Shown piece after piece: positions 2-30,447 of a DNA stretch of 32,000 bases. This stretch comes from Psychrobacter sp. DM4 (GTDB lineage: Bacteria; Pseudomonadota; Gammaproteobacteria; Pseudomonadales; Moraxellaceae), in assembly GCF_051307035.1 (NCBI RefSeq), contig NZ_CP195536.1, positions 1,980,001 through 2,012,000 of the forward strand, written 5' to 3'. Each line of letters starts with the position of its first letter. Positions within the stretch are counted from its first letter, which is position 1. The position numbers and the translations under genes were made by a program. The notes below the pieces were generated by a model that had not been told where the DNA came from, ran no database searches, and was given only the letters and a program-made list of their open reading frames with translations.

Positions 2-523
2 GATGTGTTTCAAGGCCCTCAGGACAAAAAAGGCGGCTTCTTAGGTAAGCTATTTGGCGGCGGCAATGGTGGCGGTGATTCTATCGATTTGGATGCGTCG
101 TGCATCATGTTCGATAGCAACAAGCAAGCTGTGGATGCTATTTGGTTTAGTCAATTAAAATCAAAGGACGGCAGCATCGTACATACGGGTGATAACCGTA
201 CAGGCGATGGCGACGGCGATGATGAAGTCATCAATGTCGATCTTGCTCGCGTACCAGCCAACGTGGTATCACTGGTATTTACAGTCAATAGCTTTACCGG
301 TCAAACGTTTGAGACGGTAGAGAATGCTTTTTGCCGTATCGTAAACGCCAATAACAACTCTGAGGTGGCGCGTTACAACCTATCGTCACAGGGCACTCAT
401 ACGGCGATGATCATGGCAAAGGTCTATCGCCACAATAATGAGTGGAAAATGCACGCGATTGGCGAAACAGCCTCTGGTCGCACCTTTCATGACTTGATGC
501 CTGCTATTACGCCACATGCTTAG
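2..523 (+). CDS. TerD-family stress/tellurite-resistance protein (TerD/TerZ/TerX-like), 5' end outside window
   Basis: The frame is open to the first bases of the window, and the listed ORF starts at an internal GTG. TerD-domain hallmarks are present: 'IDLDAS' strand, acidic Ca2+-binding loop 'HTGDNRTGDGDGDDE', and C-terminal 'AKVYRHNNEWKMHAIGE'. The usual N-terminal strand is missing, so the true start lies upstream. Stop TAG at 521-523, followed by a hairpin terminator. Confidence 0.85.
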   Translation, partial: DVFQGPQDKKGGFLGKLFGGGNGGGDSIDLDASCIMFDSNKQAVDAIWFSQLKSKDGSIVHTGDNRTGDGDGDDEVINVDLARVPANVVSLVFTVNSFTGQTFETVENAFCRIVNANNNSEVARYNLSSQGTHTAMIMAKVYRHNNEWKMHAIGETASGRTFHDLMPAITPHA

Positions 524-646: not shown

Positions 647-1912
647 TTATTTGCTACCCCGCTTCCAGCTAAAGCCCCAGTTAAAAGCTTTGTCCATCTC
701 TTGATGACCTTTAAAGTATTGGTTGATACGCTCAACATTGATACTACCCTGCTGATTGACCAAACGGGCAATAGCACACATCGGCATATTACCTGCGCCC
801 TCAGTCAGGCGGGTCTCGATTGGTGGCTGATCGGGTACATGAATAGTCACAACCCCATCCGTTTGTGCCCAATTTGGGGCGCCCTCATAGATGAATGCAA
901 AGATGAATACCTCTTCGATTTGTGCCCACTGCTGACCGTTGATATCGAGCCACTCGCCGCCACTGACCTGACCGGTTCTATCATCAGCACGTAACAGAAC
1001 ATAAGGCGCCGTTTGCAAACTCCCAAAGCGATTGCCTAAGGCTTGAATCAACGTTTTCTCGCCATTTTTGAGGTGAATCATTGCGCCAACATCAAGGTCG
1101 ATACCACCTGCTTTATGTTGTTTAAATAGGTCACCCAGCAGTCCTTTTTTGGGTGCTTGCTTAGTGGCATCTGGACGCTGATTCCAGTTCAAATTGACCG
1201 ATATCTTGCCAAAATCATCGCGTTTTTTGAGATTAATACTAGATTGATTTTTGGTTAAGGTAATTTTACTTAGATTAATGGAAGGACTGGTAGAATTAGT
1301 AGGAATCGGTGGCGGCGTACTGGTTTGCGCGGCGCTACCTGCTTTTTGGGTGTTGATAGGCTTTTGAGTATTAATAGATTGGTTCTGGTTTTGATTCTGG
1401 GCAGGAGTATCATCGCTGATTTCGACACCGAAATGCTCAGACAAAGGTTTGAGACCCCCTTCAAACCCTTGAGCGATAAACCGAAATTTCCAGCTGCCCT
1501 GACGACGATAACACTCTGCTAAGATAATTGCTTTTTCGTTACGTCCGTTGGCACTTAGCTGACAAGTCATCAGTACTTGGCTACCTTGCAACACTTGAAT
1601 GTCGACATCACCAATCTGCGCCAAGGTTTGCGCGCTTGAGAATGCTAGAGCAATTTTATCGATGTTTGCAGGCTGCGCAGGCAGATCAATATCAAAGAAC
1701 CCATCGCTGTCATGACCTCGAAAGCTCACATGACCATCATCACTACGCGTCTGTCCATAAAATATCATATCACCATCACCGCGTACTTTGCCCTCGCTCG
1801 TTATACGGTAAGCGGCGCAATCGATCGCGTTTTGACTCAAAATACGGATGCTAATGTTGTCTGTTGGCAGTGGCGCATTGGCACCAGCAACGAGTGTTTG
1901 CGGTTGGCTCAT
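647..1912 (-). CDS. terA: TerA-like protein with two TerD-fold domains joined by a Q/N/T/P-rich linker
   Basis: 421 aa. The N-terminal TerD-like domain runs from 'QTLVAGANAPLP' to 'EKAIILAECYRRQGSWKFRFIAQGFEGGLKPLSEHFGVE'. The low-complexity linker reads 'AQNQNQNQSINTQKPINTQK...TSTPPPIPTNSTSP'. The C-terminal TerA-type domain reads 'GGIDLDVGAMIHL...ALGNRFGSLQTAPYVLLRADDRTG...VFIFAFIYEGAPNWAQTDGVVT'. Confidence 0.85.
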   Translation of the reverse strand: MSQPQTLVAGANAPLPTDNISIRILSQNAIDCAAYRITSEGKVRGDGDMIFYGQTRSDDGHVSFRGHDSDGFFDIDLPAQPANIDKIALAFSSAQTLAQIGDVDIQVLQGSQVLMTCQLSANGRNEKAIILAECYRRQGSWKFRFIAQGFEGGLKPLSEHFGVEISDDTPAQNQNQNQSINTQKPINTQKAGSAAQTSTPPPIPTNSTSPSINLSKITLTKNQSSINLKKRDDFGKISVNLNWNQRPDATKQAPKKGLLGDLFKQHKAGGIDLDVGAMIHLKNGEKTLIQALGNRFGSLQTAPYVLLRADDRTGQVSGGEWLDINGQQWAQIEEVFIFAFIYEGAPNWAQTDGVVTIHVPDQPPIETRLTEGAGNMPMCAIARLVNQQGSINVERINQYFKGHQEMDKAFNWGFSWKRGSK

Positions 1913-2134: not shown

Positions 2135-3286
2135 ATGGACAATCAAAGCAACAATAACACTTCTAAATCAGCTGCTGTTTGGCTTGCAGAAGGACAATCA
2201 AGCCAGCGTGATATGCTCGCAAGCTTACAAGATCTTAAAATATCATCTGATACGCCATTTACTATTATCGCCTCACATCGTCATCATCGACCTGAGATTT
2301 TTGAATGTGCAGATAGCGTTTATCGAGAGCCCTCTTTAAGCATTAGCGATGAGGAGTCACTGACAGCTAACCCTGTTGAAGCCAAGCCTACTATGGCGCG
2401 TTGGCAGTTCGTATTAGAGCAAGCCCAACAACAAAACGTAAAGGTGCTCCTCACCGGTCGCAATGGTATTGATTATGAAGCACACCGTAATACCTTTAGC
2501 GCCGCTGGTATCCGTCTATTGACAGGCGCAACGAGCGTCGATGCCTTAGAGTCTATCGATGATAAGTTTACCTTTATGAAGCAATGTCACGCTTACAACA
2601 TCCCCGTAGCAGACGCTTGGCGGTTTGATACGACATCTGAGCTACAAGCATTACTTGCTGAGCATGGTCATCAGCCTCTATGCGTAAAGCCGGTCACAGG
2701 TATCTTTGCCCAAGGGTTTTGGCGTCTTGACTCTAGTAAAGAGACAGATGAGCAGTATGATAGCTTTGAGCACTTGTACTTCACTGAAGAGAGAAAAATT
2801 AACACCGAACAATTTATAAATGCTTATACCAACAGTCAAATGGTAAAAGAGCGCCCTATTCCTATGCTACTCATGCCTTTTTTATCAGGACAAGAGTACT
2901 CTATCGACGTCGTCTGCGAGTATGGTGAAGTGTTGGCCGCAATCACCCGTCATAAGACGGGAAAAGTCCAGCATATTGGTTACGAGCAGCCGGTTATGGA
3001 TGTCGTCATTCCGCTAATCAAAGCTTTTGGCTGCGATGGTATCGTCAGCGTACAGACCAAAGCTGATGATGACGGTCAGCACCGCGTCCTTGAGATCAAC
3101 TCGCGTCCCTCAGGCGGTATCGGTTATACCTCTCATAGCGGCGTCGATCTAACGCAAGTGGCTTTTAGCTATTGGCTTGGACTCACGGACAAACCCAAGC
3201 TTGAGGATATGATAAAAACATTTACGCCTTGTCAGGTACGCTCTATTATGACGAGCGTCAAGATAGAAGCTGAAATGCTCAAGTAA
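2135..3286 (+). CDS. ATP-grasp family ligase (Ter-associated biosynthetic module)
   Basis: 383 aa with the ATP-grasp layout: 'DDKFTFMKQCHAYNIPVADAW', 'PLCVKPVTGIFAQGFWRL', 'LMPFLSGQEYSIDVVCEYGEVLAAITRHK' and 'HRVLEINSRPSGGIGYT'. It sits next to TerA/TerD genes, as described for Ter-linked modules. Confidence 0.85.
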   Translation: MDNQSNNNTSKSAAVWLAEGQSSQRDMLASLQDLKISSDTPFTIIASHRHHRPEIFECADSVYREPSLSISDEESLTANPVEAKPTMARWQFVLEQAQQQNVKVLLTGRNGIDYEAHRNTFSAAGIRLLTGATSVDALESIDDKFTFMKQCHAYNIPVADAWRFDTTSELQALLAEHGHQPLCVKPVTGIFAQGFWRLDSSKETDEQYDSFEHLYFTEERKINTEQFINAYTNSQMVKERPIPMLLMPFLSGQEYSIDVVCEYGEVLAAITRHKTGKVQHIGYEQPVMDVVIPLIKAFGCDGIVSVQTKADDDGQHRVLEINSRPSGGIGYTSHSGVDLTQVAFSYWLGLTDKPKLEDMIKTFTPCQVRSIMTSVKIEAEMLK

Positions 3287-3333: not shown

Positions 3334-4533
3334 TTAATGGCTGTTGCTGGTTAATTCAGGAAAACGCTTTATCATAAAAATTACGAGTATCAGCGCTAAT
3401 AAGGCAATGGCAGCGCCGACGTAGCCCACGCTCGATAGAGAGATATAGGTGACCGCGTAACCGCCAAGCAGTGCCCCTGTACCTATGCCTAAGTTGATGA
3501 TGCCCGAGAACATCGCCATCACCATGTCTTGGGCGTTGATATCAATCTCAATCACTTTGGACTGGATGGTTAACATTAGCAGTATCATGGCTGTACCCCA
3601 AATCACGGTGATGATGCTAAATAACCATATCGATGTCGCCGTCCATAACATGAGTAGCATCGCCCCTATCATGAGCACTGTAGATACTAGCATCATGGTA
3701 GTACTCGATCTGTCACTCCAGCGACTAAATATATAACTGCCAACGAGTCCTGCGCCGCCAAATAGTAACAGGATGAGCGTCACTAAGTTCTCACTCATAG
3801 CGCCAACCCGATTCAAAAAAGGTTCGATATAAGTATAAGCGGCATAATCTGCGGTAAAGATAATAAAGCAGAATACATACAGACTGACTAATAAAGGATT
3901 CTTGAGCAATTCTGGGATTTTTCTAAAAGAGCCGTTAAACATACTAGGCAGTGTAGGTAATAATCTGGCTTGCAAAATAAATACGATAAAAGCAATGATT
4001 CCAATACCCGCAAAGGTCGTGCGCCAACCAAACCATTGTCCTAATATACGTCCTATAGGTACGCCTAATACTAGCGCTAAAGAGGTCCCTGTAGCCAATA
4101 TGCTAAGCGCCAAGGCCCGTTTGCCTTCAGGTGCTACCCGCAGCGTTATCGCCGCAGTAATGGACCAAAATATCGCATGCGAAAAAGCAATCCCTACTCG
4201 GCTAACCAAGAGAACTTGAAAGCTCCAGGCAAATACAGATAAGGCATGACTGGTAATAAAGACCACGAATACAGCTAGTAGCAAGCGCTTGCGCTCAAAC
4301 CTGCTGGTCAGTAGCATCAGTGGTAATGACATAGCCGCGACGACCCAAGCATACAGCGTTAACATCCAGCCTGTTTCTGCCGCCGTGATAGAGAAATCTT
4401 TGGCGATGTCACTGAGCAATGCCACAGGCACAAATTCTGTAGTATTAATCACAAAAGCACTAATACCCATCAAGATCACTCGAAAATACTGAGTGCGGCG
4501 AGACACTGACCCTATCTCAAAATTATTTTCCAT
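3334..4533 (-). CDS. sotB: MFS transporter, SotB-like sugar efflux family
   Basis: 12-TM MFS protein collinear with my recollection of E. coli SotB/YdeA: 'NTTEFVPVALLSDIAKDF', 'LTLYAWVVAAMSLPLMLLTS', 'SHAIFWSITAAITLRVAPEGKRALALS', 'FSGIINLGIGTGALLGG'. The ATG at 4533 (MENNFE...) is preferred over the listed 4569 start, whose extra 12 aa are hydrophobic filler. It lies antisense to the flanking Ter-module genes. Confidence 0.85.
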   Translation of the reverse strand: MENNFEIGSVSRRTQYFRVILMGISAFVINTTEFVPVALLSDIAKDFSITAAETGWMLTLYAWVVAAMSLPLMLLTSRFERKRLLLAVFVVFITSHALSVFAWSFQVLLVSRVGIAFSHAIFWSITAAITLRVAPEGKRALALSILATGTSLALVLGVPIGRILGQWFGWRTTFAGIGIIAFIVFILQARLLPTLPSMFNGSFRKIPELLKNPLLVSLYVFCFIIFTADYAAYTYIEPFLNRVGAMSENLVTLILLLFGGAGLVGSYIFSRWSDRSSTTMMLVSTVLMIGAMLLMLWTATSIWLFSIITVIWGTAMILLMLTIQSKVIEIDINAQDMVMAMFSGIINLGIGTGALLGGYAVTYISLSSVGYVGAAIALLALILVIFMIKRFPELTSNSH

Positions 4534-4886
4534 AACACTGACTACTATAAAAAAGTGCACATATAGCACGGCTGACCCAAAAATGGGTGCTAGGATTTAG
4601 GGAGTATAAGTAGAGAGTAAGGCGCATTCATTTGCGGTAATATAGCTCTACTTTTGATTCAAGTTTCGTTCAGCGGCATATTCTAGTACATTGTTTTTTG
4701 ATTATCTATCAGACTTATGTTCACGGTAATTGATTGAGTCTATTAAAACTGCTTTGCCCTCCAGTTCTATGCAAAAGTCGTTAGAATGGACAAACTTATG
4801 TATTATATACCTGTATATCTATAGCGGTAACTTTGATAAGATTTAGCTCCTAAGTATATGACGAATATTTGAACAGAGGATAGGCA

Positions 4887-6110
4887 ATGACAGCCCAGAC
4901 TACGCTAGTGCTAGGCGCAAATACCATTATTGAGCATCCTAAGTGTTCAGTTGCTTTTGCTACAAATAATCCGCTCAAATTTGGTCAGCAGCTTGGTCTG
5001 ATTTGGTTGCCTTTGGATGAGAGCCGAAAAGCAGCTTGTAGTCCCGCCTACCTTCATGAGCCCAAAGACTGGGCACAGCTAGATGATAGCGAGAACCCCA
5101 GTAGATGGCAGCTTGATTTGCCAAAGCTATTTGAGACGCAAAATGTGAGCTATCTACAGCTTATTGCCTATGCTTACTATGAGCCGAGCTTAAACTTGCC
5201 TGCGGTTGAATTAAATCATATTAGTTTGAGATTGAATAATAGCGCTATACGTTACGACTTTATAGTGAGCGAGCGCCATGTCAAAGCTGCCATTATATTA
5301 GAGATATACAAACGTAATGGACAGTTTAAATGCAGGGCGTTAGGTGAGAGCTCAACCCAAGGATTAGCAAGCCTAGAGCAGCGCGTGCAAGTGAGCCTAG
5401 ATACTCGTCCACCAGATACTCATGCGCTCATTCAATCGGCGCAGCAGCAGCAACGAGGTCAGTCAAACAATGAGTTACGCCCGCCGCGTCATGTTGAACC
5501 GGGCGAGACATGGACGGGCACAGCGTTCGCTATTGGCCCCTATCATCTATTGACCTGCTATCATGTGATTGAGTCGGCGGCGATGATTGCTATACGTCAG
5601 CAAGGGCCTCCTGACATAGAGGCGCAAGTGGTGATGAGCGACATCGGTAGTGATTCAGCTATCATTAAAGTTCGCGAGCCGCTACCTAGCTATCTACCGC
5701 TCGCGCAGCAGTGCTCAGATATATTGGGCGAGACCATTACCACCCTAGGCTTTCCCCTATCAGGCGTGAGTAGTCAGTTGCAAGTGACCCAAGGCTGTAT
5801 CTCAGGATTGACAGGGTTTGGTGACGATATCCGCTATATGCAATTTACCGCGCCCATTCAGCCCGGCTCTAGTGGTAGCCCTTTATTGTTGCCAACGGGC
5901 GAGGTGATCGGCATGGTGACGGCTAGCCTCGTCCATGAACAGGCACAAAATATGAACTATGCGGTGAAATTTCAGTTATTATCCGCCCTACTCGCGAGCG
6001 CTGGCATCAGTTTGGACAACTCACATTCTGTATCAGCCGCGAATTTAAGCACACCGCAACTGAGCAAACAAAGCCGCAGCGCGCTCTGGCTAGTTGGTTG
6101 TCAGGATTAG
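4887..6110 (+). CDS. Fusion protein: N-terminal TerD-fold (TerA-N-like) domain + C-terminal trypsin-like (S1/HtrA-like) serine protease
   Basis: Residues 1-170 parallel the N-domain of the TerA-like protein. 'MTAQTTLVLGANTII' matches 'MSQPQTLVAGANAPL', and 'VKAAIILEIYKRNGQFKCRALGESSTQGLASLEQRVQVSLD' matches 'EKAIILAECYRRQGSWKFRFIAQGFEGGLKPLSEHFGVEISD'. A Q-rich linker follows, then the protease with candidate triad His226 ('LLTCYHVIE'), Asp256 ('SDSAIIKV') and Ser329 ('QPGSSGSPLL'). Triad spacing of 30 and 73 residues is typical of S1C proteases. RBS 'agagga' lies upstream. No signal peptide or TM segment. Confidence 0.8.
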   Translation: MTAQTTLVLGANTIIEHPKCSVAFATNNPLKFGQQLGLIWLPLDESRKAACSPAYLHEPKDWAQLDDSENPSRWQLDLPKLFETQNVSYLQLIAYAYYEPSLNLPAVELNHISLRLNNSAIRYDFIVSERHVKAAIILEIYKRNGQFKCRALGESSTQGLASLEQRVQVSLDTRPPDTHALIQSAQQQQRGQSNNELRPPRHVEPGETWTGTAFAIGPYHLLTCYHVIESAAMIAIRQQGPPDIEAQVVMSDIGSDSAIIKVREPLPSYLPLAQQCSDILGETITTLGFPLSGVSSQLQVTQGCISGLTGFGDDIRYMQFTAPIQPGSSGSPLLLPTGEVIGMVTASLVHEQAQNMNYAVKFQLLSALLASAGISLDNSHSVSAANLSTPQLSKQSRSALWLVGCQD

Positions 6111-6194: not shown

Positions 6195-7436
6195 ATGTCA
6201 AAGCAGCAACACAGTACTCGCATCACCTTACCTCGCGGTACATTAGATTTAACGTATCAAACCAATAGCACCAACAATAATAAAAACTATGAACTTGAAG
6301 ACTTACTTGGCTTTGCGCAGCGCATTAACCCCAAACGTGCGTTTTTATTCGTCTCAAAAGTCTTGGGTCGACACATTCCCGTCGCACCTCATACCATGCG
6401 TCGTGCTTTTACGGATTTGGCAAACCTAGTCCCTAGCAAGTTACCCGAGCCCATTTTAGTTATCGGTATGGCAGAGACTGCTGTGGGCTTATCTGCAGGC
6501 GTCCATCAAGCGCTACAAGCGCGCTATTTGAATGCTGTACTACTCAACTCCACGCGTCACGCACAGCATAGCGATAATAATAGTGAGACCTTGCTGACCA
6601 CTTTTAGTGAAGACCATAGTCACGCCAGCCAACATCTCATCTATCAAAGCTGCGATAAAATGACTCAAGAGCAATTGCTGGCTAGCAAAACGTTGATTAT
6701 GGTTGATGATGAAGCCTCAACAGGTAATACCTGCGTCAACGTCGTGACCGCACTGCGTAACGCTGGTCTGAACCAATTAGAGCAAGTCCATCTCACAACT
6801 TTGGTGGATTGGTCGCTAAGTCACGATGCAACTGATGCTGATGACACTATATCAACGCGTTTGCCTAATATTGACTTTCAGCGTCATCACTTGCTCTCTG
6901 GGGCATGGCAATGGAGAGATGCGCCTAATCCTGAACCGATCACTATGCCCTCAGTTGATACGACTGATGCTGGCACGCAAACGTTGGGTAATACAGGGAA
7001 TTGGGGACGCTTTCCCACTCTAAATAGCACTAATGGCTTTGCCCATTATTTAGCAAATTTTCAAACAAAGTTTGCACGCTTTCATGAGCAAGCGATATTT
7101 GCTAAAAAGCAATTACCCCAGCGTATTTTGGTTTTAGGTAGTAATGAGTTTGTCTGGTTGCCGTTTTTATTAGCGGAGTGGCTTGAGCAAAATACTGGCT
7201 CACAGAATGAAGTAAAGTTCAGCGCCTTGACCCGTTCACCGATTGCGCTTGGTGGTGCAATTACAACTATGCTCAGCTTTCATGATAATTACGGATTGGG
7301 CATGACGAACTTTGCTTATAATGTCGAGCCAAAGGATTGGGATTTGATTGTGCTATGTGTAGAAACGGCCGCTGCTAGTGTTGATACCATGTGGCAAAGT
7401 TTGGATAATGTGTTGGTGATGAGTCCTATACCTTAA
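6195..7436 (+). CDS. Phosphoribosyltransferase-domain protein with C-terminal TRSP-like domain (Ter-associated PRTase)
   Basis: 413 aa. PRPP-binding signature 'LIMVDDEASTGNT', preceded by 'LVIGMAETAVGLSAGV'. The C-terminal region 'RILVLGSNEFVWLPFLLAEWLE...FSALTRSPI' is consistent with the TRSP domain reported after this PRTase type in Ter loci. RBS 'aaggaa'. Confidence 0.75.
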   Translation: MSKQQHSTRITLPRGTLDLTYQTNSTNNNKNYELEDLLGFAQRINPKRAFLFVSKVLGRHIPVAPHTMRRAFTDLANLVPSKLPEPILVIGMAETAVGLSAGVHQALQARYLNAVLLNSTRHAQHSDNNSETLLTTFSEDHSHASQHLIYQSCDKMTQEQLLASKTLIMVDDEASTGNTCVNVVTALRNAGLNQLEQVHLTTLVDWSLSHDATDADDTISTRLPNIDFQRHHLLSGAWQWRDAPNPEPITMPSVDTTDAGTQTLGNTGNWGRFPTLNSTNGFAHYLANFQTKFARFHEQAIFAKKQLPQRILVLGSNEFVWLPFLLAEWLEQNTGSQNEVKFSALTRSPIALGGAITTMLSFHDNYGLGMTNFAYNVEPKDWDLIVLCVETAAASVDTMWQSLDNVLVMSPIP

Positions 7437-7478: not shown

Positions 7479-8297
7479 ATGACCACCTCATTCTTCGAGT
7501 CTAACCCAAACCTTATAAAACCATACGCTCTTATGGATTTGGACGACACTTTATTTCAAACCCAACGTAAGATTGAGGCTTGGGATCTGCCTACTGCTGA
7601 CCCTAAAAACTTAGTTTGTGCGACGGTAAATAAACAAGACGAGCCGCTTAGCTTTATGAGTCAACGACAAGCGACGTTTTTTAATTGGTTGCTCGCTAGC
7701 ACTGAATTGATAGTGGTTACTGCCCGTGACCGTGATGAGATTAAACGCGTTAAGCTGCCTTTTAACAGTTGGCAAGTGCTGACTCATGGCGCGATTATCT
7801 TAACCAGTAATGGCGAGCTACTAAGCACATGGCAACAGCATATGTATCAGCAGCTAAGTCCCTTGCAAAATAAACTGAATCAGTTAAGCCAACTATTTGC
7901 CAGTCATAGTAAAAATGATAACAGTCAGCTGGTATTTACGCCGCATATTGATAACTTTGATGCTGGTTCTACTAACGAAGAATTAACCATTTATCTAGCG
8001 ATAAAACATGCCAAAAAAGATCATCGAGCATTAAAAGAATTAGCCGAGAAGCTCCCTACATTGATCCGTGATTTTGCACAGGACTTTTATGTGCATGTTA
8101 ATGCTAATAATCTAGCGATACTGCCGCATGCTATTCATAAGCAACATGCGGTACAGTTTTTATTAGATCATCATTTAGACAGTCAGCGTCCGAGTTTTGG
8201 CTTTGGTGACAGTCTGGCAGATTTGCCGTTTCTGCAACTACTTGATTGGTACGGTATGCCCAATCACGGTCAGCTGCATGACAATCTTAGTTCTTAA
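7479..8297 (+). CDS. HAD-superfamily phosphatase (Ter-associated)
   Basis: 272 aa. HAD motif I 'LMDLDDTLF', motif II 'VVTARD', C-terminal acidic motif 'FGFGDSLADLPFL'. Confidence 0.75.
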   Translation: MTTSFFESNPNLIKPYALMDLDDTLFQTQRKIEAWDLPTADPKNLVCATVNKQDEPLSFMSQRQATFFNWLLASTELIVVTARDRDEIKRVKLPFNSWQVLTHGAIILTSNGELLSTWQQHMYQQLSPLQNKLNQLSQLFASHSKNDNSQLVFTPHIDNFDAGSTNEELTIYLAIKHAKKDHRALKELAEKLPTLIRDFAQDFYVHVNANNLAILPHAIHKQHAVQFLLDHHLDSQRPSFGFGDSLADLPFLQLLDWYGMPNHGQLHDNLSS

Positions 8298-8371: not shown

Positions 8372-9562
8372 ATGACCAACCCTAATCTTCAAAAATTAAA
8401 CCATTACGGCTCAGGCAGTTATCTTGCTAGCGATGTCACTGTACTGCTCGACATCGTCGCTAAAGACGCGGTTACCGATGTGCCCGTCACTCAAAAAGAA
8501 GCGCTGATTCAAAGTGGACAGCGTCATTATTCGGACATGCTAACCCTAGAGCAAGCACCAACAGCCATGCATGAGCAACTGTATAAGCAGGCACTGGATC
8601 AAGGCACAGATAGAACCGCAACCGATATTGCCAATTTAGCTTATACGCTAAGTCGTATTTTTCAGCAGACTGTCAATGTTGAGCATCCATTAGTATTGGT
8701 CAGCTTAGTACGGGCAGGTTTGCCAATTGGCGTATTATTACAACGGGCCTTATCAGATAATGGAAATTCAGATAATGAAAATTCAGATGCTGATAGCAGC
8801 TATGCGCTGCCAAGTGTGCATTTTGGTATCAGCATTATTCGTGATCGCGGTTTAGATGCTGTTGCTTTGCAAATGATATTGGAATTTTATCCAAACAGCC
8901 CTATCGTATTCGTCGATGGCTGGACAGGCAAAGGCGCTATTTATCAGGAACTAGCTCGTAGCTTAGAGCCATTTAGCGATAGCAGTCACCCCCATTTTGA
9001 AAATATTTTTCATCAAGGAAAAGACGTTATTCCCCTGCTGACACTGGCTGATCCAGCGGGCGTCGCTTGGCTTGCGGCGAGCGAAGATGATTGGCTCATT
9101 CCATCAGGTTTATTAAACAGCACCGTGTCAGGACTCATATCACGCAGCCTCTATACTGAGCCGCAATTAGGACTACATCGCAGCGTGTTCTATGATAACT
9201 TGAGTGATAAGGATCATAGCTTAGCGCTGGTTGATCGTATTGATGCAACGAGGCGTACAATAGCAACACCTTTGCTAGGTTTGCCAACGTTTGCTCTGCC
9301 TCGGTATCAGACCTCTGATCTCATAGATAAAATAGCAGTAGACTATAACATCACCAATCGCAATCGCATTAAGCCGACCATTGCAGAGGCAACGCGGGCT
9401 ATATTACGCCGTGATCCTGAGCGCATTTTACTTGCCGCATCCGACCATCCTGATACTTTATTATTGCGTCATTTATGCGAAGATCGTGATATCACTATCA
9501 GTATATTAGGTGATAAAATACGGCCCTATCAAGCCATCACTTTGATCAAGCAACGTAGCTGA
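8372..9562 (+). CDS. Second Ter-associated PRTase-like protein with C-terminal L7Ae/PELOTA-like domain
   Basis: 396 aa. PRTase-like core: 'LVLVSLVRAGLPIGVLL', 'IVFVDGWTGKGAI'. The C-terminal ~70 aa, 'ATRAILRRDPERILLAASDHPDTLLLRHLCEDRDITISILGDKIRPYQAITLI', follows the L7Ae/Pelota RNA-binding pattern. It contains an in-frame 15-bp tandem repeat that encodes SDNGN/SDNEN/SDADS. Confidence 0.7.
   Translation: MTNPNLQKLNHYGSGSYLASDVTVLLDIVAKDAVTDVPVTQKEALIQSGQRHYSDMLTLEQAPTAMHEQLYKQALDQGTDRTATDIANLAYTLSRIFQQTVNVEHPLVLVSLVRAGLPIGVLLQRALSDNGNSDNENSDADSSYALPSVHFGISIIRDRGLDAVALQMILEFYPNSPIVFVDGWTGKGAIYQELARSLEPFSDSSHPHFENIFHQGKDVIPLLTLADPAGVAWLAASEDDWLIPSGLLNSTVSGLISRSLYTEPQLGLHRSVFYDNLSDKDHSLALVDRIDATRRTIATPLLGLPTFALPRYQTSDLIDKIAVDYNITNRNRIKPTIAEATRAILRRDPERILLAASDHPDTLLLRHLCEDRDITISILGDKIRPYQAITLIKQRS
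8753..8797 (+). repeat. In-frame 15-bp tandem repeat (about 3 units) inside the PRTase gene
   Basis: Units are 'tcagataatggaaat' (8753-8767), 'tcagataatgaaaat' (8768-8782) and a degenerate 'tcagatgctgatagc' (8783-8797). Confidence 0.85.
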
Positions 9563-9605
9563 GAGATTTGAGCTTCTACGACTGTCCTATTAATATATAT
9601 TCTGC

Positions 9606-10724
9606 ATGTTAAAACCAATATTTCACTCACTTATGATGCCTACTATGTCAGATACGCCAGATAACGAGTCAAACCTCTATAGCTATACCCAGTCTTATGC
9701 GCATCTGATCACTGAGCGTCATGCGATGGTCAAGCCGCATACTCATCACCCTTATCAGTTGGGTGCTAGCCTCTATATGCCAGCGACGCGTCAAGACATC
9801 TGGCAAGTCATCAAACGTGATAAATTACCGAAGATTAACAGCATTATCATCTGCCTAGAGGATGCGGTAAGTCATAGCGATGTAGAGCTGGCGCTGGAAC
9901 GTTTGCAGACGTTGCTGAATACGTGGCACGAGCATAGTGATACGATCAATGAGCCATCGAGAGTGGGCCTTGAATCAGACTTAGGCACCCAGCAACCGAC
10001 ACGGCCGCTAGTGTTTGTGCGTCCACGCAATCCTATGATGCTACAACAATTGGCAGATTATCCTCATATTGACCTGCTCGATGGTTTTGTCATGCCCAAA
10101 GTCGATATGTATAGCTTATCCAATTGGCGCATGGTATGTCAGAACTTGAGTGACGATCAGCTATTGATGCCAACACTTGAGACTGCTGCTTTATTCAATC
10201 CTCATCACAATCAAGAGCTGGCTATAGCTTTTAAAGAAGCTTTTAATCAGCCTGTCTTTGCGCTACGTATCGGCGGTAATGACTTGTTTGCTACGCTACG
10301 CCTGCGTCGCCCTAGAAATAGCATCATCTATGATACGCCTATTGGTACTCTTGCCTATCAGCTGCTAGGCTGCTTTGTGCCGCACGGGTTTTATCTATCT
10401 GCGCCTGTCTTTGAGTATCTAGATCAGCCTATGTTGTTTATGCAAGAGCTCAGTCGTGACGTCAGTTTGGGGCTGGTTGGCAAAACCGTCATTCACCCAA
10501 GCCAAATAGCCTTAGTTCAGCAGGCCTATTGTGTGCCTATGAGTATGCTAGATGAGGCGCAAGCGATCCTTCATAGTGAAGCAAAAGCGGTCTTTAAATT
10601 TAACAATACCATGTTAGAGCCTGCCACCCACCGCGCTTGGGCTACCGAAATCGTCAATCGCGCTGAGGTGTTCGGTACTATCAACAATAGTAGCAATGAG
10701 TTTAATTCGCGGCTACAAGCGTAA
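9606..10724 (+). CDS. HpcH/HpaI aldolase / citrate lyase beta (CitE)-like TIM-barrel C-C lyase (Ter-associated)
   Basis: 372 aa. 'LGASLYMPATRQD', 'IIICLEDAV', 'LRIGGNDLFATLRLRR' and 'GKTVIHPSQI' match the CitE/HpcH-like pattern. It is the last gene of the co-directional run 4887-10724. The start is ambiguous, with ATGs at 9606, 9633, 9636 and 9645. Confidence 0.75.
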   Translation: MLKPIFHSLMMPTMSDTPDNESNLYSYTQSYAHLITERHAMVKPHTHHPYQLGASLYMPATRQDIWQVIKRDKLPKINSIIICLEDAVSHSDVELALERLQTLLNTWHEHSDTINEPSRVGLESDLGTQQPTRPLVFVRPRNPMMLQQLADYPHIDLLDGFVMPKVDMYSLSNWRMVCQNLSDDQLLMPTLETAALFNPHHNQELAIAFKEAFNQPVFALRIGGNDLFATLRLRRPRNSIIYDTPIGTLAYQLLGCFVPHGFYLSAPVFEYLDQPMLFMQELSRDVSLGLVGKTVIHPSQIALVQQAYCVPMSMLDEAQAILHSEAKAVFKFNNTMLEPATHRAWATEIVNRAEVFGTINNSSNEFNSRLQA

Positions 10725-10832
10725 ATTATTTACCTATTTATATATTGTATTGGCTTGATAAGCTAGGTAAGATGATTTGCATTGGTCCAAATGACCGATG
10801 GTAAATTTATAAAATAAAATATCAAAACGTTA

Positions 10833-10905
10833 TTCACAGGGGCGCCTTTAGGCTGAGATGTACCCTTTGAACCTGATCCAGGTCGTACTGGCGTAGGGAG
10901 TGTAT
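10833..10905 (+). promoter_or_regulatory. TPP (THI-box) riboswitch aptamer upstream of thiM
   Basis: 'acaggggcgcctttaggctgagatgtaccctttgaacctgatccaggtcgtactggcgtagggag' contains the conserved THI-box elements GGGG.GC, CUGAGA, ACCC, AACCUGAUC and GGCGUAGGGA. Downstream, 'gttttctc' (10938-10945) can pair with the SD region 'gagagaac' (10966-10973), which suggests translational control. Confidence 0.9.
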
Positions 10906-10973
10906 AGCTGTCACCGTATCCAATCGTGATGCTATGCGTTTTCTCGCCTGCTATTTTTAGTTATGGAGAGAAC

Positions 10974-11771
10974 ATGCACCCTCAATCGATTCATTCGTGT
11001 TTTACTGCTTTTCGTACTCAAGCGCCCTTAGTACACAACATCACTAATTTTGTCGCGATGAGTACCGCTGCCAATGTTCTACTAGCCGCTGGTGCCTCGC
11101 CCGCTATGGTGCACGCTAGAACAGAGGCGCCAGAGTTTGTCCGCCTATCCCACGCACTCACCATTAATATCGGCACGTTATCACCTGATTGGCTGGATAG
11201 TATGCTGGCAACGGTAGAAGTCGCTCACAACCAAAACATCCCCTGGGTCTTAGACCCTGTTGCGGTAGGAGCTACTACCTTTCGTAAGCAGAGCTGTGCG
11301 CAATTATTAGCGTTCAAACCCGATGTCATTCGCGGTAACGCTTCAGAGATTTTGGCGCTTGCCGGTATGAATAGCAAAAGCCGTGGCGCAGATAGCGGCG
11401 ATACTGTCGAGTCGGCAAAGGTAGCCGCTCAAGAGTTAACTCAACATGCCAAAGTCGTTGTCGTCACCGGTGAGGTCGATTGGGTTACTGATGGCACGCA
11501 GCGATGGAGCGTACATCAAGGCGTACCTATGATGACTCGTGTGACCGCGATCGGCTGTGCACTGACCTCTTTGATTGGCGGCTTTGTCGGTAGTAATCGC
11601 GACGACTTGGCAGGCGCTGTCATCAGTGCTCTATGCTATTACGGACAGGCGGGTGAACTGGCGGATAAGACAGCAAAAGGTCCTGGCAGTTTCTATGTCG
11701 AATTTTTGGATGCTCTCTATCATCTAGATGCTGATCAAGTCTCTAAACACGCCAAGGTGATTGTCATATGA
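10974..11771 (+). CDS. thiM: Hydroxyethylthiazole kinase
   Basis: Collinear with E. coli ThiM: 'PLVHNITNFVAMSTAANVLLAAGASPAMV', 'LTINIGTL', 'PWVLDPVAVGAT', 'IRGNASEILALAG', 'VVVTGEVDWVTDG', 'GPGSFYVEFLDALY'. The ATG at 10974, with RBS 'ggagag' 3 nt upstream, is preferred over the listed 10926 start. Confidence 0.93.
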   Translation: MHPQSIHSCFTAFRTQAPLVHNITNFVAMSTAANVLLAAGASPAMVHARTEAPEFVRLSHALTINIGTLSPDWLDSMLATVEVAHNQNIPWVLDPVAVGATTFRKQSCAQLLAFKPDVIRGNASEILALAGMNSKSRGADSGDTVESAKVAAQELTQHAKVVVVTGEVDWVTDGTQRWSVHQGVPMMTRVTAIGCALTSLIGGFVGSNRDDLAGAVISALCYYGQAGELADKTAKGPGSFYVEFLDALYHLDADQVSKHAKVIVI

Positions 11772-12427
11772 GCCTATCCAACCAAAACAACACTAGCAAA
11801 TCTAGTGAAGCATTACGCTTATATCTAGTCACCGATAGCGCGATGTGTACAGAATATGGATTAATTGACACCGTTTGCGCGGCCATTGATGGCGGCGTTA
11901 CGATGGTACAGTTGCGCGACAAACAAGCTAATGATGATGAGTTGTACAACACGGCTTGCGCGCTCAAAGAAGCGATTGCTGGACGTGTGCCTCTAGTCAT
12001 AAATGATCGTGTCGCTATTGCCAAAAAAGCTCAGCTTGATGGCGTCCATCTTGGACAAGGCGATATGTCTATCAGTAAAGCGCGAGCGATCTTAGGCGCG
12101 GACGTTTGGCTGGGATTGTCGATTAATACTCTCGATGAGCTACGCATCGCACACGCTCAGCACCTCTCACATCTGGACTACGTCGGTATCGGTCCCGTCT
12201 TTGCCACCGCAACCAAAGCTAATCATGCAGACCCTATCGGTATAAAAGGCTTGGGGGCTTTGGTCGCACAGAGTCAATTACCTACGGTAGCCATTGGCGG
12301 TATTGGTCAAGACAATGCCGCTGACGTCTATACCACAGGCTGCGACGGTATCGCTGTCGTCTCAGCGATTTGCAGAGCTGCCGATCCAAAAGCTGCTGCC
12401 AAAACTCTATTAGGAGCACAATTATGA
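11768..12427 (+). CDS. thiE: Thiamine-phosphate synthase
   Basis: 'LYLVTD', 'VQLRDK', 'LVINDRVAIA', 'GVHLGQGD', 'GIGPVFATATK' and 'VAIGGI' motifs. The start overlaps the thiM stop in an ATGA junction. Confidence 0.93.
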   Translation: MSLSNQNNTSKSSEALRLYLVTDSAMCTEYGLIDTVCAAIDGGVTMVQLRDKQANDDELYNTACALKEAIAGRVPLVINDRVAIAKKAQLDGVHLGQGDMSISKARAILGADVWLGLSINTLDELRIAHAQHLSHLDYVGIGPVFATATKANHADPIGIKGLGALVAQSQLPTVAIGGIGQDNAADVYTTGCDGIAVVSAICRAADPKAAAKTLLGAQL

Positions 12428-13218
12428 TTGCCAATATTTTAACCATTGCTGGTACTGACTGTACTGGCGGTGCAGGTATTCAAGCAGATATCAAAGCCAT
12501 CAGCGCCAATGGCGGCTATGCGATGAGCGTCATCACGGCAGTCGTCGCGCAAAACACTCAAGGCGTCCAGCAAATTCAGATGCTACCTACTCAGATGGTA
12601 CGCGCTCAAATTGACTCGGTGTTTAGTGATGTGCGCGTTGATGCGGTCAAAATCGGTATGCTCGGTAGCGCTGACATTATTAATTGTGTAAGCGATGCCT
12701 TGGCAAAATACCAACCCAAAAAAGTCGTACTCGATCCGGTTATGGTTGCCAAGAGTGGGGATCGCTTGCTGGATGCCGATGCGCTATCGGCGATGCGTAA
12801 GCTACTGCCACTAGTCGGACTGATCACGCCTAATCTACCAGAAGCAGCGGACTTACTAGGTGAGGAGGAGGCTAAAGATCGCAATGAGATGCTAGCGCAA
12901 GCTGGTCGCCTGTCAGTGCCTACCTTTTTGAAGGGTGGTCATTTACAGCAGGACGATTCGCCAGATTTATTATACGTCGATGGCGCGCATCAATGGTTTG
13001 AAAGCGTACGAATAAATACCAAAAATAGTCATGGTACAGGATGTACGTTGTCAGCGGCGATTGCCACCTATTGGGGACGCGGTGACGATCTAGATGTCGC
13101 TTGTGCAAAAGCAAAAACCTATCTCACTGGTGCGCTACAACACGCGGACAAACTCGACGTTGGACAAGGTCAAGGCCCTGTGCACCATTTTCATGAGTTC
13201 TACTCGGTTTCGGAGTGA
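12424..13218 (+). CDS. thiD: Hydroxymethylpyrimidine/phosphomethylpyrimidine kinase
   Basis: 'ILTIAGTDCTGGAGIQADIKA', 'VDAVKIGML', 'VVLDPVMVAKSG', 'LITPNLPEA', 'HGTGCTLSAAIA'. The ATG at 12424 has RBS 'aggag' and overlaps the thiE stop in an ATGA junction, so it is preferred over the listed 12370 start. Confidence 0.93.
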   Translation: MIANILTIAGTDCTGGAGIQADIKAISANGGYAMSVITAVVAQNTQGVQQIQMLPTQMVRAQIDSVFSDVRVDAVKIGMLGSADIINCVSDALAKYQPKKVVLDPVMVAKSGDRLLDADALSAMRKLLPLVGLITPNLPEAADLLGEEEAKDRNEMLAQAGRLSVPTFLKGGHLQQDDSPDLLYVDGAHQWFESVRINTKNSHGTGCTLSAAIATYWGRGDDLDVACAKAKTYLTGALQHADKLDVGQGQGPVHHFHEFYSVSE

Positions 13219-27025: not shown

Positions 27026-28111
27026 CTAACAACAACCGCCTGAACTGCTAGAGGTATTTGTAGTAGCGACCATCGGCGCAACCTCTACTAGTTGATTGCC
27101 TTGCGACTGACCAAACGGTATCGAATCACCGCAACCAGCAAAGATGCCATAATGCTGGCTGTTATCGCCAATAAATTCAAAGTGCGGCGCAAAACGAGAC
27201 TCTTTGAGCATTTGATAAGTATTCGCGCAGACCGAAAACACCCGACCCGTCTCGATACTATGATGCTTATCAAGATCAAAGCGATGAGGTAGCTGATCAA
27301 TACTGCCTTTGTAAATCACGGCTTGTCCATAATCTTCACAAGCATCTTCTATTGACTCGCTCTTAAAGAGACGATAAGTGGCAGAAAAGAACTTGATCTC
27401 GCCAATTTTTGCTGCCAGTAAAGGATCAGTAATCTCAAGCGGACGATCTTCGACAAGTCTTGGATCTAAAAATTTGGCATCACGTGATAAGCGCTCAAAA
27501 TCTTTCCAATAAAGTGCGCCGCTTAAACACTCCCCATACAACACAGGATCTTCAACTAAGTGCTGAGGGATGCGGCGATCTGAATATACATCAGAAAAAT
27601 AAAACTCACCACCAGGCTTTAGCAGACGCTGTACGCTAGCCATTACCGCAGCTTTGTCAGTCGATAAATTGATAACGCAGTTTGAGACGATTATATCGAA
27701 GCTATTATCTTCTAGATCAAGCTCATCTAACGTTTCAAGATAGCCTTTTATAAAGGTGACGTTTTCGTAGCCAAATTTATCGCTATGATAGTCCTGATGC
27801 TCCTTTGCAATAGCTAATTGCTCATCAGTCATATCTATACCAACGACATGACCACTGCTTCCTACGAGCTGCGCTAAGGCGTAAACATCACGACCAGAGC
27901 CACTGCCTAAATCTAGTATACGGCAGCCCTCTAGTAGTGCTGGGCAGACAAGCCCGCAACCATAATAACGACTCAACACATCGTCATGAATATTAGCCAA
28001 TAGCGGTTTGAGCCAATTAGGCATGTTGCTGACATCACAGCACGCTGAGGTTTTTAGATCAGCTGTACTCTGTAGCTGTTTACCGTAATAATCTTGTACT
28101 ACATCTTGCAT
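27026..28111 (-). CDS. arsM: ArsM-like As(III) S-adenosylmethionine methyltransferase
   Basis: 361 aa. SAM motif 'ILDLGSGSGRDVY'. All four Cys contexts typical of ArsM are present: 'SACCD', 'YYGCGLVCP', 'VSNCVINL' and 'YGECLSGAL'. The C-terminal tail ends 'SSSSGGCC'. Confidence 0.8.
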   Translation of the reverse strand: MQDVVQDYYGKQLQSTADLKTSACCDVSNMPNWLKPLLANIHDDVLSRYYGCGLVCPALLEGCRILDLGSGSGRDVYALAQLVGSSGHVVGIDMTDEQLAIAKEHQDYHSDKFGYENVTFIKGYLETLDELDLEDNSFDIIVSNCVINLSTDKAAVMASVQRLLKPGGEFYFSDVYSDRRIPQHLVEDPVLYGECLSGALYWKDFERLSRDAKFLDPRLVEDRPLEITDPLLAAKIGEIKFFSATYRLFKSESIEDACEDYGQAVIYKGSIDQLPHRFDLDKHHSIETGRVFSVCANTYQMLKESRFAPHFEFIGDNSQHYGIFAGCGDSIPFGQSQGNQLVEVAPMVATTNTSSSSGGCC

Positions 28112-28164
28112 GATTTTTTTCCTTCAAAGGTAATAGTTGTAGAGATAGAGACATCTCTAATTTA

Positions 28165-28800
28165 TCAATCAGTTATCGTATAATCGGCTAGCCAGTCAGT
28201 AGGCAAATACTGTAGATCACTGGGCTCATCGATATCATGCAAGGTCTCAAGTATACGCAATGACCAGTCTAATTCCACTAATCGCTGTTGGGTGACTGCG
28301 GCAACGTTACTGATGCTCCAAGTCATATCTGAGAACAGGCGCTCGTGAGTTTGCTTGAAGCCTAAAAGCACATAGCCACCGTCTGAAGCTGGAATCATCA
28401 CACTATCACAGCTATCTAGTTGCTGCGCGGCACTTTGAATAACTGTCGTTGACAGACTAGGGCAATCTGTCCCTATTAGTAACACCTTTTCAAATTTTGT
28501 CAAAGCTTGCGCACTAGCTGTGAGCATACGAGTACCTAAGTCGCCATTGGCTTGTACTGACCACAGCAGTGACCTAGGTAAATCTAGCGTCTGCCAGCAC
28601 GGGTCATTTGGCGCCGGACTCACACATAACTCGACGGCAAGCCCAGTTGCTACTGCTTGCTCTATACTATGTAGCAATAGTTTACGCGCCATACGCGCAG
28701 AACCTGCGATACCAAGGGCGGGTTGCAGGCGAGTTTTGGCCATGCCTTCGGCAGGGAATTTGGCAAAGACAATAAGGCAGGTTGGTTGTTTTTGATTCAT
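28165..28800 (-). CDS. DUF2064 / CofC-MobA-like transferase (rSAM/selenodomain-associated 'transferase 1' type)
   Basis: 'CLIVFAKFPAEGMAKTRL', 'LLIGTDCPSL', 'IPASDGGYVLLG' match the DUF2064 nucleotidyl-transferase-like family. It is tightly packed after the GT2 gene. Start at ATG 28800, or 28809. Confidence 0.7.
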   Translation of the reverse strand: MNQKQPTCLIVFAKFPAEGMAKTRLQPALGIAGSARMARKLLLHSIEQAVATGLAVELCVSPAPNDPCWQTLDLPRSLLWSVQANGDLGTRMLTASAQALTKFEKVLLIGTDCPSLSTTVIQSAAQQLDSCDSVMIPASDGGYVLLGFKQTHERLFSDMTWSISNVAAVTQQRLVELDWSLRILETLHDIDEPSDLQYLPTDWLADYTITD

Positions 28801-28817
28801 GATAAGCATATTTTCTT

Positions 28818-29540
28818 TTATTGGTAATAGCGCTTTTTGATATTATCAGCAGATACGCCGCGCCAATAATCAAAACGCAGCTGCCACATTAGAGCAATCG
28901 TGCGCCAAGTGCCATGCTGTCGCCAGCGCCGCGCCGAGGTGGTAACTTTACTCTTCAAACAAGCAGGTTTGCCGATGGATTTTAAGCGTTTACTTACTTC
29001 AATATCTTCCATTAATGCTTGATTGGGATAACCGTTTATTTCTTCAAAGACTTTACGTTTAATAAAAATAGCTTGGTCACCAGTGGCAATACTACTCAAT
29101 CGTGAGCGCAAATTTATCATTTGGCCAACTAGCTTGAGCGTCCAATCAGGGCTATCTAGGCGCACATCAAAACGACCCCACTTAGCGCCTTGATACATTA
29201 CCCTAGCAATATCTAATATCGACGCAGTTGGTAATATCGTATCGGCATGCAAGAACAGCAGTACATCGCCAGTAGCGAGCGCGGCGCCCTCGTTCATTTG
29301 CGTCGCGCGTCCTGCTTTTGACTCAACCACTTGCCAATCTGTAGCCGATTGACTATCAATAGTCAGACTTTTTATCATTTGCTTAGCGAGTGCCAAAGAA
29401 TTATCGTTTGAGCTACCATCGACCATGATAACTTCTTTCGGCGCTGGGTTGAGTCCATTAATATGAGCAAACAAATGAGGCAGATTATCTGCCTCATTGA
29501 GTATGGGAATAATAATAGAAACCGTAACAATGGCGGTCAT
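28818..29540 (-). CDS. Family-2 glycosyltransferase (rSAM/selenodomain-associated 'transferase 2' type)
   Basis: 'VSIIIPILNEADNL', 'VIMVDGSSNDNS', 'LLFLHADTILP', 'GDQAIFIKRKVFEEINGYP...MEDIE' give the GT-A fold DxD/ED pattern. The ATG at 29540 is preferred, and the listed GTG at 29552 is possible. Confidence 0.8.
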   Translation of the reverse strand: MTAIVTVSIIIPILNEADNLPHLFAHINGLNPAPKEVIMVDGSSNDNSLALAKQMIKSLTIDSQSATDWQVVESKAGRATQMNEGAALATGDVLLFLHADTILPTASILDIARVMYQGAKWGRFDVRLDSPDWTLKLVGQMINLRSRLSSIATGDQAIFIKRKVFEEINGYPNQALMEDIEVSKRLKSIGKPACLKSKVTTSARRWRQHGTWRTIALMWQLRFDYWRGVSADNIKKRYYQ

Positions 29541-29560
29541 ATTTGCTAGCACTCACCTTT

Positions 29561-30382: not shown

Positions 30383-30447
30383 AAGATAAGCTCCGTTGAT
30401 GCTAATGATAATATTGGTTTTATGAATAAGAGTGCCTAGAACCTGCT

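Follow-up and report, generated by a model that had tools for sequence, protein, structure and literature searches.

What does a serine protease contribute to an operon that is predicted to make a nucleoside-like molecule, and what purpose is served by the TerD-type domain at its N-terminus? The question is raised by a single gene in a 32,000-nt stretch of the Psychrobacter sp. DM4 chromosome (NZ_CP195536.1, positions 1,980,001 to 2,012,000), which was analysed as a whole and is referred to here as the window. The gene encodes a protein of 407 residues, termed TerD-protease below. It stands in a Ter biosynthetic module composed of phosphoribosyltransferase (PRTase), HAD, a further PRTase-like protein (StiP), ATP-grasp and TIM-barrel lyase enzymes beside TerD-family genes, which is the module composition given by Anantharaman, Iyer and Aravind (2012) to the extent that it is summarised in PMC11994780. 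According to published conjecture, the PRTase and HAD enzymes make a signal and TerD is a receptor for specialised nucleotide derivatives (PMC7159879, PMC7824862, PMC11994780). We tentatively favour the explanation that TerD-protease is an accessory, cytoplasmic and regulated serine protease of the Ter stress response, in which the TerA-type domain may act as an input module that senses the nucleoside-like product of the biosynthetic enzymes.

Domain architecture of TerD-protease

An earlier note on this DNA had assigned a TerD fold to the first ~170 residues and described this region as a clear paralogue of the N-terminal domain of the neighbouring TerA-like protein. In single-sequence comparisons the second part of this claim is overstated. 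The window protein taken by itself falls below the Pfam gathering threshold for TerD (PF02342; 23.7 bits with a cut-off of 25.3) and aligns only through residues 117–164; its isolated N-terminal half reaches 25.4 bits, and BLASTP against the neighbouring TerA-like protein aligns 46 amino acids at 37% identity (E=3e-5). A word-indexed sequence search with the N-terminal domain alone returned only truncated Psychrobacter fragments. At the level of families and profiles the relationship is clear. Pfam TerD matches 29 of the 31 full-length relatives of the protein, with a best E of 2.6e-27, and hhalign aligns the N-domain family to the TerA N-terminal domain (P=99.9%, E=4e-33) and to canonical TerD (P=99.4%, E=9e-22, 160 columns).

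The N-terminal domain was modelled separately, because matches to the protease domain prevailed in a Foldseek search with the full-length protein. The AlphaFold model of the isolated domain has a predicted local distance difference test score (pLDDT) of 91.1 and a predicted template modelling score (pTM) of 0.87. In a Foldseek search of the PDB its top five matches (9a6r_B, 3ibz, 2kxt, 2qng and 2qz7) are all TerD-family structures with a probability of 1.0 and template modelling (TM) scores of 0.58–0.75, and the next match has a probability of 0.11. Profiles and model together indicate that residues 1–172 are a TerD-fold β-sandwich that is closer to the TerA N-terminal domain than to TerD proper. 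The predicted domain shares this β-sandwich with the TerA/TerD proteins of Klebsiella pneumoniae (2KXT) and Streptomyces coelicolor (3IBZ) and with Bacillus subtilis SCP2 (in 9A6R), together with an N-terminal L..G.N..L motif and a C-terminal E.YRR.G.WK.RA..G motif. It differs from these proteins in its fusion to a protease and in its lack of the canonical Ca2+ ligands.

Two Ca2+ sites have been assigned in K. pneumoniae TerD, comprising residues 29, 40–42, 78, 79, 82, 84, 88 and 89 (Pan et al., 2011, in the part quoted in PMC8779313). In the profile alignment, the canonical DLDA segment falls on LGLIW in the protease N-terminal domain and is substituted, and the GDNxTGxGDGDDE loop is deleted, which leaves a gap of ~7 residues. 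The DLD segment and this loop are the elements that form the TerD Ca2+ sites. With these canonical ligands substituted or deleted, the Ca2+ sensing that the earlier note had considered for this domain appears unlikely.

The protease half is HtrA-like. Residues 211–343 match Pfam Trypsin_2 (PF13365; E=1.3e-20, 75 bits). The best PDB sequence relatives found by phmmer are plant Deg2/Deg9, Thermotoga HtrA, HhoA, MucD and DegS, and the best Foldseek matches are DegS-deltaPDZ (E=2.5e-11), DegP, MucD and HtrA1. His226 (in TCYH), Asp256 (in GSDSA) and Ser329 (in PGSSGSP) align to the HtrA catalytic triad in His-Asp-Ser order. None of the three residues varies among 23 Psychrobacter orthologues or among 30 relatives with 24–59% identity, which bears out the intact triad read from the sequence before. 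No PDZ domain was matched in the window protein with Pfam at E up to 1; a 35-residue C-terminal tail occupies its place. No signal peptide or membrane segment was seen, and the maximum Kyte-Doolittle mean over 19 residues is 1.38, again in agreement with the earlier reading. The protein is therefore predicted to be cytoplasmic. Its scores lie far below the NCBIfam cut-offs for degP_htrA_DO (56 versus 416 bits) and DegS (46 versus 423 bits), and also below that for DegQ, which indicates an HtrA-like catalytic domain rather than an HtrA orthologue.

The sequence and the models consequently describe a predicted cytoplasmic S1C-type protease, catalytically equipped as judged from its residues, in which a TerA-type TerD domain at the N-terminus takes the place of the usual PDZ regulator. 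With DegS and HtrA (MEROPS S1C) it shares the chymotrypsin fold, the order of the triad and the GxSGx motif, and conceptually it shares a non-catalytic domain that would gate the protease. DegS is allosterically switched by its regulatory domain. In contrast to DegS and HtrA, the window protein has no PDZ domain, signal peptide or anchor, and its putative regulatory domain is N-terminal and of the TerD fold.

The two halves are joined by the Q-rich linker noted previously (SAQQQQRGQSNN), within which residues 193–199 have a pLDDT <50. This linker (residues 173–205) and residues 373–386 are the least conserved parts of the protein. The last 21 residues are conserved, with a mean identity of 86% in Psychrobacter for residues 387–407 compared with 43% for the 14 residues that precede them, and the tail consensus R..R..VWR.EC is found in distant TerD-proteases. 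The alignment also extends to residue 405/406, with the tail included, in related proteases whose N-terminal domains are unrelated (Sel1, TPR, Big_2, LRR). The idea that this clade of proteases consists of dedicated immune effectors was tested and rejected, because the relatives that share the tail carry Sel1, TPR, Big_2, LRR, MORN or peptidoglycan-binding domains.

The architecture was thought to be undescribed when it was first noticed in this sequence. However, a table published in 2008 already lists YP_273108.1 of Pseudomonas syringae as 'TerD-Tryp', an architecture that its authors describe as lacking functional characterisation (Tripathi and Sowdhamini, PMC2605481). The likeness to that protein lies in the reported domain order, in which a TerD module precedes a trypsin-family protease, and not in a comparison of sequences. 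The paper reports the co-occurrence of the Pfam domains in one protein, without the operon slot, the TerA-type origin, the loss of the Ca2+ site, the distribution or the tail. Precomputed Pfam annotation likewise places PF02342 plus PF13365 on many orthologues. In the literature on TerD with a serine protease, no functional study of any member was found; Anantharaman, Iyer and Aravind (2012) may describe the fusion too. The window protein belongs to a known, widespread and already catalogued family. What seems to be new is that its N-terminal domain is of TerA-N origin and has a deleted Ca2+ loop, that the gene keeps a fixed slot between ATP-grasp and PRTase genes and is optional in its distribution, that a TerD domain is fused in parallel to an NYN RNase, and that the tail of residues 387–407 is conserved.

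Operon slot and distribution

In the window, TerD-protease is the first gene of a same-strand run that continues with PRTase_2/TRSP, HAD, StiP/PELOTA and C-C lyase genes (Table 1). The description of the gene as the leader of the Ter biosynthetic operon holds for this run and fails as a general rule, as the ATP-grasp gene precedes the protease in most other lineages. TerD-protease leads the run here because an opposite-strand SotB-like gene of the major facilitator superfamily (MFS) splits off the ATP-grasp gene. The TPP (thiamine pyrophosphate) riboswitch at the other end opens an unrelated thi operon, which sets the end of the Ter module at 10724. An alignment of the 200 nt upstream in Psychrobacter loci gave no conserved motif besides the Shine-Dalgarno sequence, a promoter and terminator scan at the locus stayed at chance level, and Rfam gave no riboswitch upstream of the gene, its single match being the TPP element before the next operon.

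The gene order recurs beyond this genome. Related loci were collected with a 9-sequence alignment as query, and 80 loci, nearly all from Psychrobacter or Moraxella, were kept (locus labels below carry the prefix L). In the top 150 matches of an all-against-all HMMER search, both domains occur together in ~30 distinct clusters at 50% identity. Where contigs are long enough, the order ATP-grasp, TerD-protease, PRTase_2/TRSP, HAD, StiP/PELOTA, C-C lyase is found in Psychrobacter and in the metagenomic loci L081 (44% identity), L089/L090 (31%) and L096, the last of which has an additional DUF4236 gene downstream of the protease. The metagenomic relatives overall (L081, L084, L087, L089/L090, L096) have 24–44% identity, and on the short contigs of L084 (42%) and L087 (27%) the visible part is ATP-grasp, protease and PRTase. 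In Thiothrix eikelboomii (L093) the run from PRTase to lyase begins with the protease, and the ATP-grasp gene lies on the opposite strand.

In several lineages the start of the protease gene overlaps the stop of the ATP-grasp gene by 4–8 bp, and ATP-grasp adjoins or overlaps the protease start in L081, L087, L089/L090, L091 and L096. In peptide-modification systems, peptidases often accompany ATP-grasp amidoligases. The adjacency and overlap in several lineages would suit a biosynthetic or maturation peptidase that works with the ATP-grasp amidoligase and trims or releases an amino acid or peptide attached to the nucleoside-like product, to a carrier or to a tagged protein, while the TerD-like domain holds the substrate. 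Such a role is quite improbable, however, given that ~2,400 plasmids carry the five-enzyme module, with its ATP-grasp gene, but lack the protease, and that no ATP-grasp gene lies near the Moraxella osloensis or orphan copies considered below. The strand of the Thiothrix ATP-grasp gene and the inserted gene that parts ATP-grasp from protease in the window also speak against it.

The inserted SotB-type gene is probably a lineage-specific insertion and not part of the Ter system. It was considered as an exporter of the Ter metabolite and rejected as a part of the system, as it occupies this spot in only 5 Psychrobacter loci (L001, L006, L055, L057 and L066). The spot between ATP-grasp and TerD-protease is a variable insertion site, which in other Psychrobacter loci holds MHYT plus V4R genes or nothing.

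A full-length homologue with 33% identity is carried on IncP-2-type megaplasmids of Pseudomonas (P. aeruginosa, P. citronellolis, P. kurunegalensis; 127 plasmid records), where it occupies the same operon slot directly upstream of terZABCDE (L091). StiP served as a marker for the module and is present in 2,574 plasmid records, mainly from Klebsiella, Escherichia, Enterobacter and Salmonella. The plasmid-borne TerD-protease is essentially confined to the Pseudomonas subset, and ~95% of the plasmid Ter biosynthetic modules are without it. In an IncHI2 plasmid example the PRTase gene begins within 10 bp after the ATP-grasp gene, with no protease between them. TerD-protease is an optional part that is dispensable for the Ter biosynthetic module and does not belong to its core. 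Enterobacterial modules work without the gene, which suggests a regulatory or effector role rather than a core biosynthetic one.

Within Psychrobacter the gene is stable. Full-length orthologues at 68–95% identity all come from this genus, and a single intact open reading frame (ORF) is present in ~70 Psychrobacter species genomes. Synonymous divergence is saturated for most orthologue pairs, and only the closest pair (with L001) gives usable ratios of non-synonymous to synonymous substitution rates (dN/dS), which are 0.105 for the N-terminal domain, 0.047 for the protease and 0.026 for the C-terminal tail. Both halves of TerD-protease are under purifying selection. Together with the distant lineages that share it, these data dispel the concern that the fusion is a strain-specific artefact. 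One split copy was found (L069, Psychrobacter sp. ER1), in an assembly in which several neighbouring genes are split too: TerA, protease, PRTase and HAD are each broken into two or three ORFs. In L020 (Psychrobacter sp. WY6) TerD, TerA, PRTase, HAD and StiP are split and the protease is intact. Both are complete-genome assemblies, and these splits look like indel sequencing errors rather than real pseudogenes.

The window also contains an arsenosugar-biosynthesis-type cluster at a distance from the Ter genes, which is listed last among its features.

Table 1. Features of TerD-protease and its surroundings in the window; the position of the NYN protein refers to locus L003.
Feature	Position	Strand	Evidence or remark
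Shine-Dalgarno sequence GAGGA	4876–4880	+	Visible in the sequence, 6 nt before the ATG of TerD-protease
TerD-protease ORF, 407 amino acids plus stop	4887–6110	+	ATG start
Predicted TerA-N-type TerD-fold β-sandwich, residues 1–172	4887–5402	+	AlphaFold, Foldseek, hhalign; without canonical Ca2+ loop
Linker, residues 173–205	5403–5501	+	AlphaFold secondary structure: helix 176–191, Q-rich stretch, disordered 193–199
Predicted S1C (DegS/HtrA-like) protease domain, residues 206–372	5502–6002	+	Pfam Trypsin_2, PDB phmmer, Foldseek
His226 codon	5562–5564	+	Catalytic by alignment to HtrA
Asp256 codon	5652–5654	+	Catalytic by alignment to HtrA
Ser329 codon	5871–5873	+	Catalytic by alignment; GSSGS aligned to HtrA GNSGG
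Conserved C-terminal tail LSTPQLSKQSRSALWLVGCQD, residues 387–407	6045–6107	+	Predicted helix 389–399, strand 400–406
Canonical TerD/TerZ-type protein	5–523	+	Pfam TerD E=1e-45; intact GDNRTGDGDGDDE Ca2+ loop; possibly cut by window start
TerA-like protein	647–1912	-	Pfam TerD E=2e-27, residues 28–160; N-domain is the closest paralogue of the protease N-domain
ATPgrasp_Ter amidoligase	2135–3286	+	PF15632 E=5e-33; directly before the protease in most other lineages
SotB-type MFS sugar-efflux transporter	3334–4569	-	NF002921, 522 bits versus cut-off of 401
PRTase_2 + TRSP phosphoribosyltransferase	6195–7436	+	Pfam E=2.7e-53 and 9e-18
HAD-IIB phosphatase	7479–8297	+	Pfam Hydrolase_3, NCBIfam HAD-SF-IIB, both weak
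StiP + PELOTA_1	8372–9562	+	Pfam E=1.6e-76 and 3.9e-22
TIM-barrel C-C bond lyase	9606–10724	+	PF15617 E=1.2e-98; last module gene
TPP riboswitch RF00059	10828–10916	+	73.6 bits versus gathering score of 54.3; directly upstream of thiM
thiM	10926–11771		After TPP riboswitch
thiE	11768–12427		After TPP riboswitch
thiD	12370–13218		After TPP riboswitch
NYN-LOTUS-TerD protein, 440 amino acids	L003 11318–12640	+	Also in L017, L024, L046, L058, L065, L067, L071, L073
Arsenosugar-biosynthesis-type cluster	27026–31425	-	Radical SAM ArsS (TIGR04167, 459 bits); TIGR04283 and TIGR04282 glycosyltransferases; unassigned 309-amino-acid ORF; ArsM-like methyltransferase with Cys-rich tail

The TerD-fold domain as a possible input module

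In the explanation that we favour, an HtrA/DegS-type catalytic domain would have lost its C-terminal PDZ regulator, and the N-terminal TerA-type TerD domain would serve as the input module. This domain would sense how the Ter pathway stands; its most likely ligand would be the nucleoside-like compound made by the ATP-grasp, PRTase, HAD, StiP and lyase enzymes, or one of their intermediates, and it would gate the protease via the helical linker. The gated protease may then make limited cuts in a Ter-associated or cellular target and tune the response. This sensor-gating explanation is preferred because the synteny, the pattern of variable effectors and the published nucleotide-derivative conjecture for TerD all fit it.

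The pattern of variable effectors is best seen in a second fusion. A gene for a protein with NYN RNase, OST-HTH/LOTUS and TerA-N-type TerD domains lies directly after TerD-protease and before the PRTase gene in nine Psychrobacter-group loci. Its TerD domain has 32% identity to the TerA N-terminal domain of the window (E=4e-23). The architecture is abundant in the protein database, where it is annotated merely as 'NYN domain-containing protein'. The two fusions are alike in that a TerA-N-type TerD domain is joined to a hydrolase in the same operon. They differ in that the TerD domain of the NYN protein is C-terminal, its effector is a predicted RNase, and its gene is absent from the window. The presence of one TerA-N-type domain on two different hydrolases is the pattern expected of a sensor module. 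The general logic, in which a TerD input domain gates a hydrolase, is plausible. It is unlikely, however, that TerA-N-type TerD domains as a class are receptors for the Ter nucleoside-like product and that the protease or NYN RNase fusions are ligand-activated degradative effectors.

Several observations weigh against a domain that senses the product of the module. The Ca2+ site, which is the sole known TerD ligand site, is gone from the protease N-terminal domain. Conservation across the N-domain family revealed no conserved polar pocket; the residues conserved family-wide (L7, G10, N12, L78, E139, Y141, W147, K148, R150, A151 and G159) are those of the generic TerD core. The full-length AlphaFold model has a pTM of 0.64, which leaves the inter-domain geometry uncertain. 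In Moraxella osloensis / Enhydrobacter (L074–L080), a TerD-TerD-TerD-protease unit (~8650–11180) has no biosynthetic gene within 10 kb. Two orphan TerD-proteases (L095, 8001–9218; L097, 5078–6292) have no Ter genes within 8 kb.

Some of these loci have further features of their own. In L076 genes for a DDE transposase and for a GmrSD restriction enzyme come after the TerD-protease unit. L075 (BMPS01000063.1, labelled Streptomyces cinereus JCM 3040) carries a TerD gene and a TerD-protease at 141–2047 of a 5-kb contig; its 57% identity to the query and its layout match the M. osloensis loci, and the contig is probably a contamination of the Streptomyces assembly. The L097 orphan is near a metallo-beta-lactamase-fold gene with a precomputed Pfam match to anti-Pycsar Apyc1.

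The lost Ca2+ site and the lack of a conserved polar pocket would be expected if the TerA-like domain bound no small molecule and instead docked the protease on TerD, TerA or TerZ paralogues or on a membrane-proximal TerC complex, where the protease would turn over or process Ter proteins as a form of stoichiometry or quality control. TerD-family genes are the most constant neighbours of the protease, including in M. osloensis, where biosynthetic genes are not nearby, and in L094, and the protease N-terminal domain is most similar to that of TerA. In addition, the toxicity of terCD alone is relieved by terA or terZ, which implies interplay among TerD-family proteins (PMC8779313). On the other hand, the gene has a fixed slot inside the biosynthetic operon rather than beside terZABCDE, no TerD gene lies within 8 kb of the orphan copies, and hetero-oligomerisation of TerD domains was not found in the literature searched. 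Docking on Ter proteins is somewhat unlikely on this balance, and the sensor-gating explanation is retained.

The earlier note had also likened the protein to the sensor-effectors of anti-phage systems. In its strongest form, this comparison would make TerD-protease an abortive-infection effector: a phage-triggered signal from the module would activate the protease, and indiscriminate protein degradation would kill or arrest the cell, as with SAVED- or CHAT-type proteases. Such a role would accord with the historical phage-inhibition phenotype of ter operons (PMC5822837), with the parallel NYN RNase-TerD fusion and with the Apyc1-like gene that adjoins the L097 orphan. The protease domain also matches the PADLOC models of retron type XI reverse transcriptase-protease effectors (PDLC02960, PDLC02959; E=9e-18, ~160 residues), which contain a homologous Trypsin_2-type domain. 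This match is generic, however: it covers only model positions 348–504, the protease part, and its 62 bits compare with 75 bits for Pfam Trypsin_2. Unlike the retron effectors, the window protein has a TerD-fold N-terminus and comes without a reverse transcriptase or a non-coding RNA. Apart from this domain-level match and a weak match to HamA, PADLOC returned nothing, and it gave no defence-system match. SAVED-Lon CalpL and SAVED-CHAT are ligand-sensor-protease effectors of nucleotide-signalling immunity. Their logic is analogous, in that a putative small-molecule-binding domain is joined to a protease beside enzymes for a nucleotide-like molecule; in contrast, their sensor and protease folds are unrelated to those of the window protein, whose gene is optional, stands without defence-island context or PADLOC system match, and has a ligand that is only conjectured.

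The phage-inhibition phenotype was reportedly described on IncHI2-type plasmids, and IncHI2-type ter clusters are without TerD-protease. No two-domain homologue of the fusion was found in phage genomes. The gene is chromosomal and vertically conserved across the genus, and no defence-island context was found in the window, where it has housekeeping genes (thi, acnB-like, lipA-like) as neighbours. Close relatives of the protease carry Sel1, TPR, Big_2 or peptidoglycan-binding domains, which are typical of envelope proteins rather than of effectors in immunity. An abortive-infection role is very unlikely, and the anti-phage sensor-effector suggestion is without direct support in these data.

Implications for the Ter system

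The fusion itself is already catalogued and would not surprise a specialist; the value of the present analysis lies in comparative detail: the gene keeps a fixed slot and has an optional distribution, its TerD-fold domain has lost the Ca2+ site, and an RNase fusion exists in parallel. For decades the ter operon has been associated with resistance to tellurite, phages and colicins, and a TerD-type domain on an easily assayed enzyme offers a practical handle on this long-unsolved system. If the domain senses the product of the pathway, activation of the protease could provide a bioassay for purifying and identifying it. If the domain docks on TerD paralogues, it would show how the Ter complex is regulated. 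Should TerA-N-type domains prove to be receptors in general, the protease fusion would be the first enzymatic read-out for identifying the Ter metabolite, and Ter would be a small-molecule second-messenger pathway of stress or immunity with a logic comparable to that of CBASS, Thoeris and type III CRISPR. The family is also present on the clinically important IncP-2-type megaplasmids of Pseudomonas aeruginosa.

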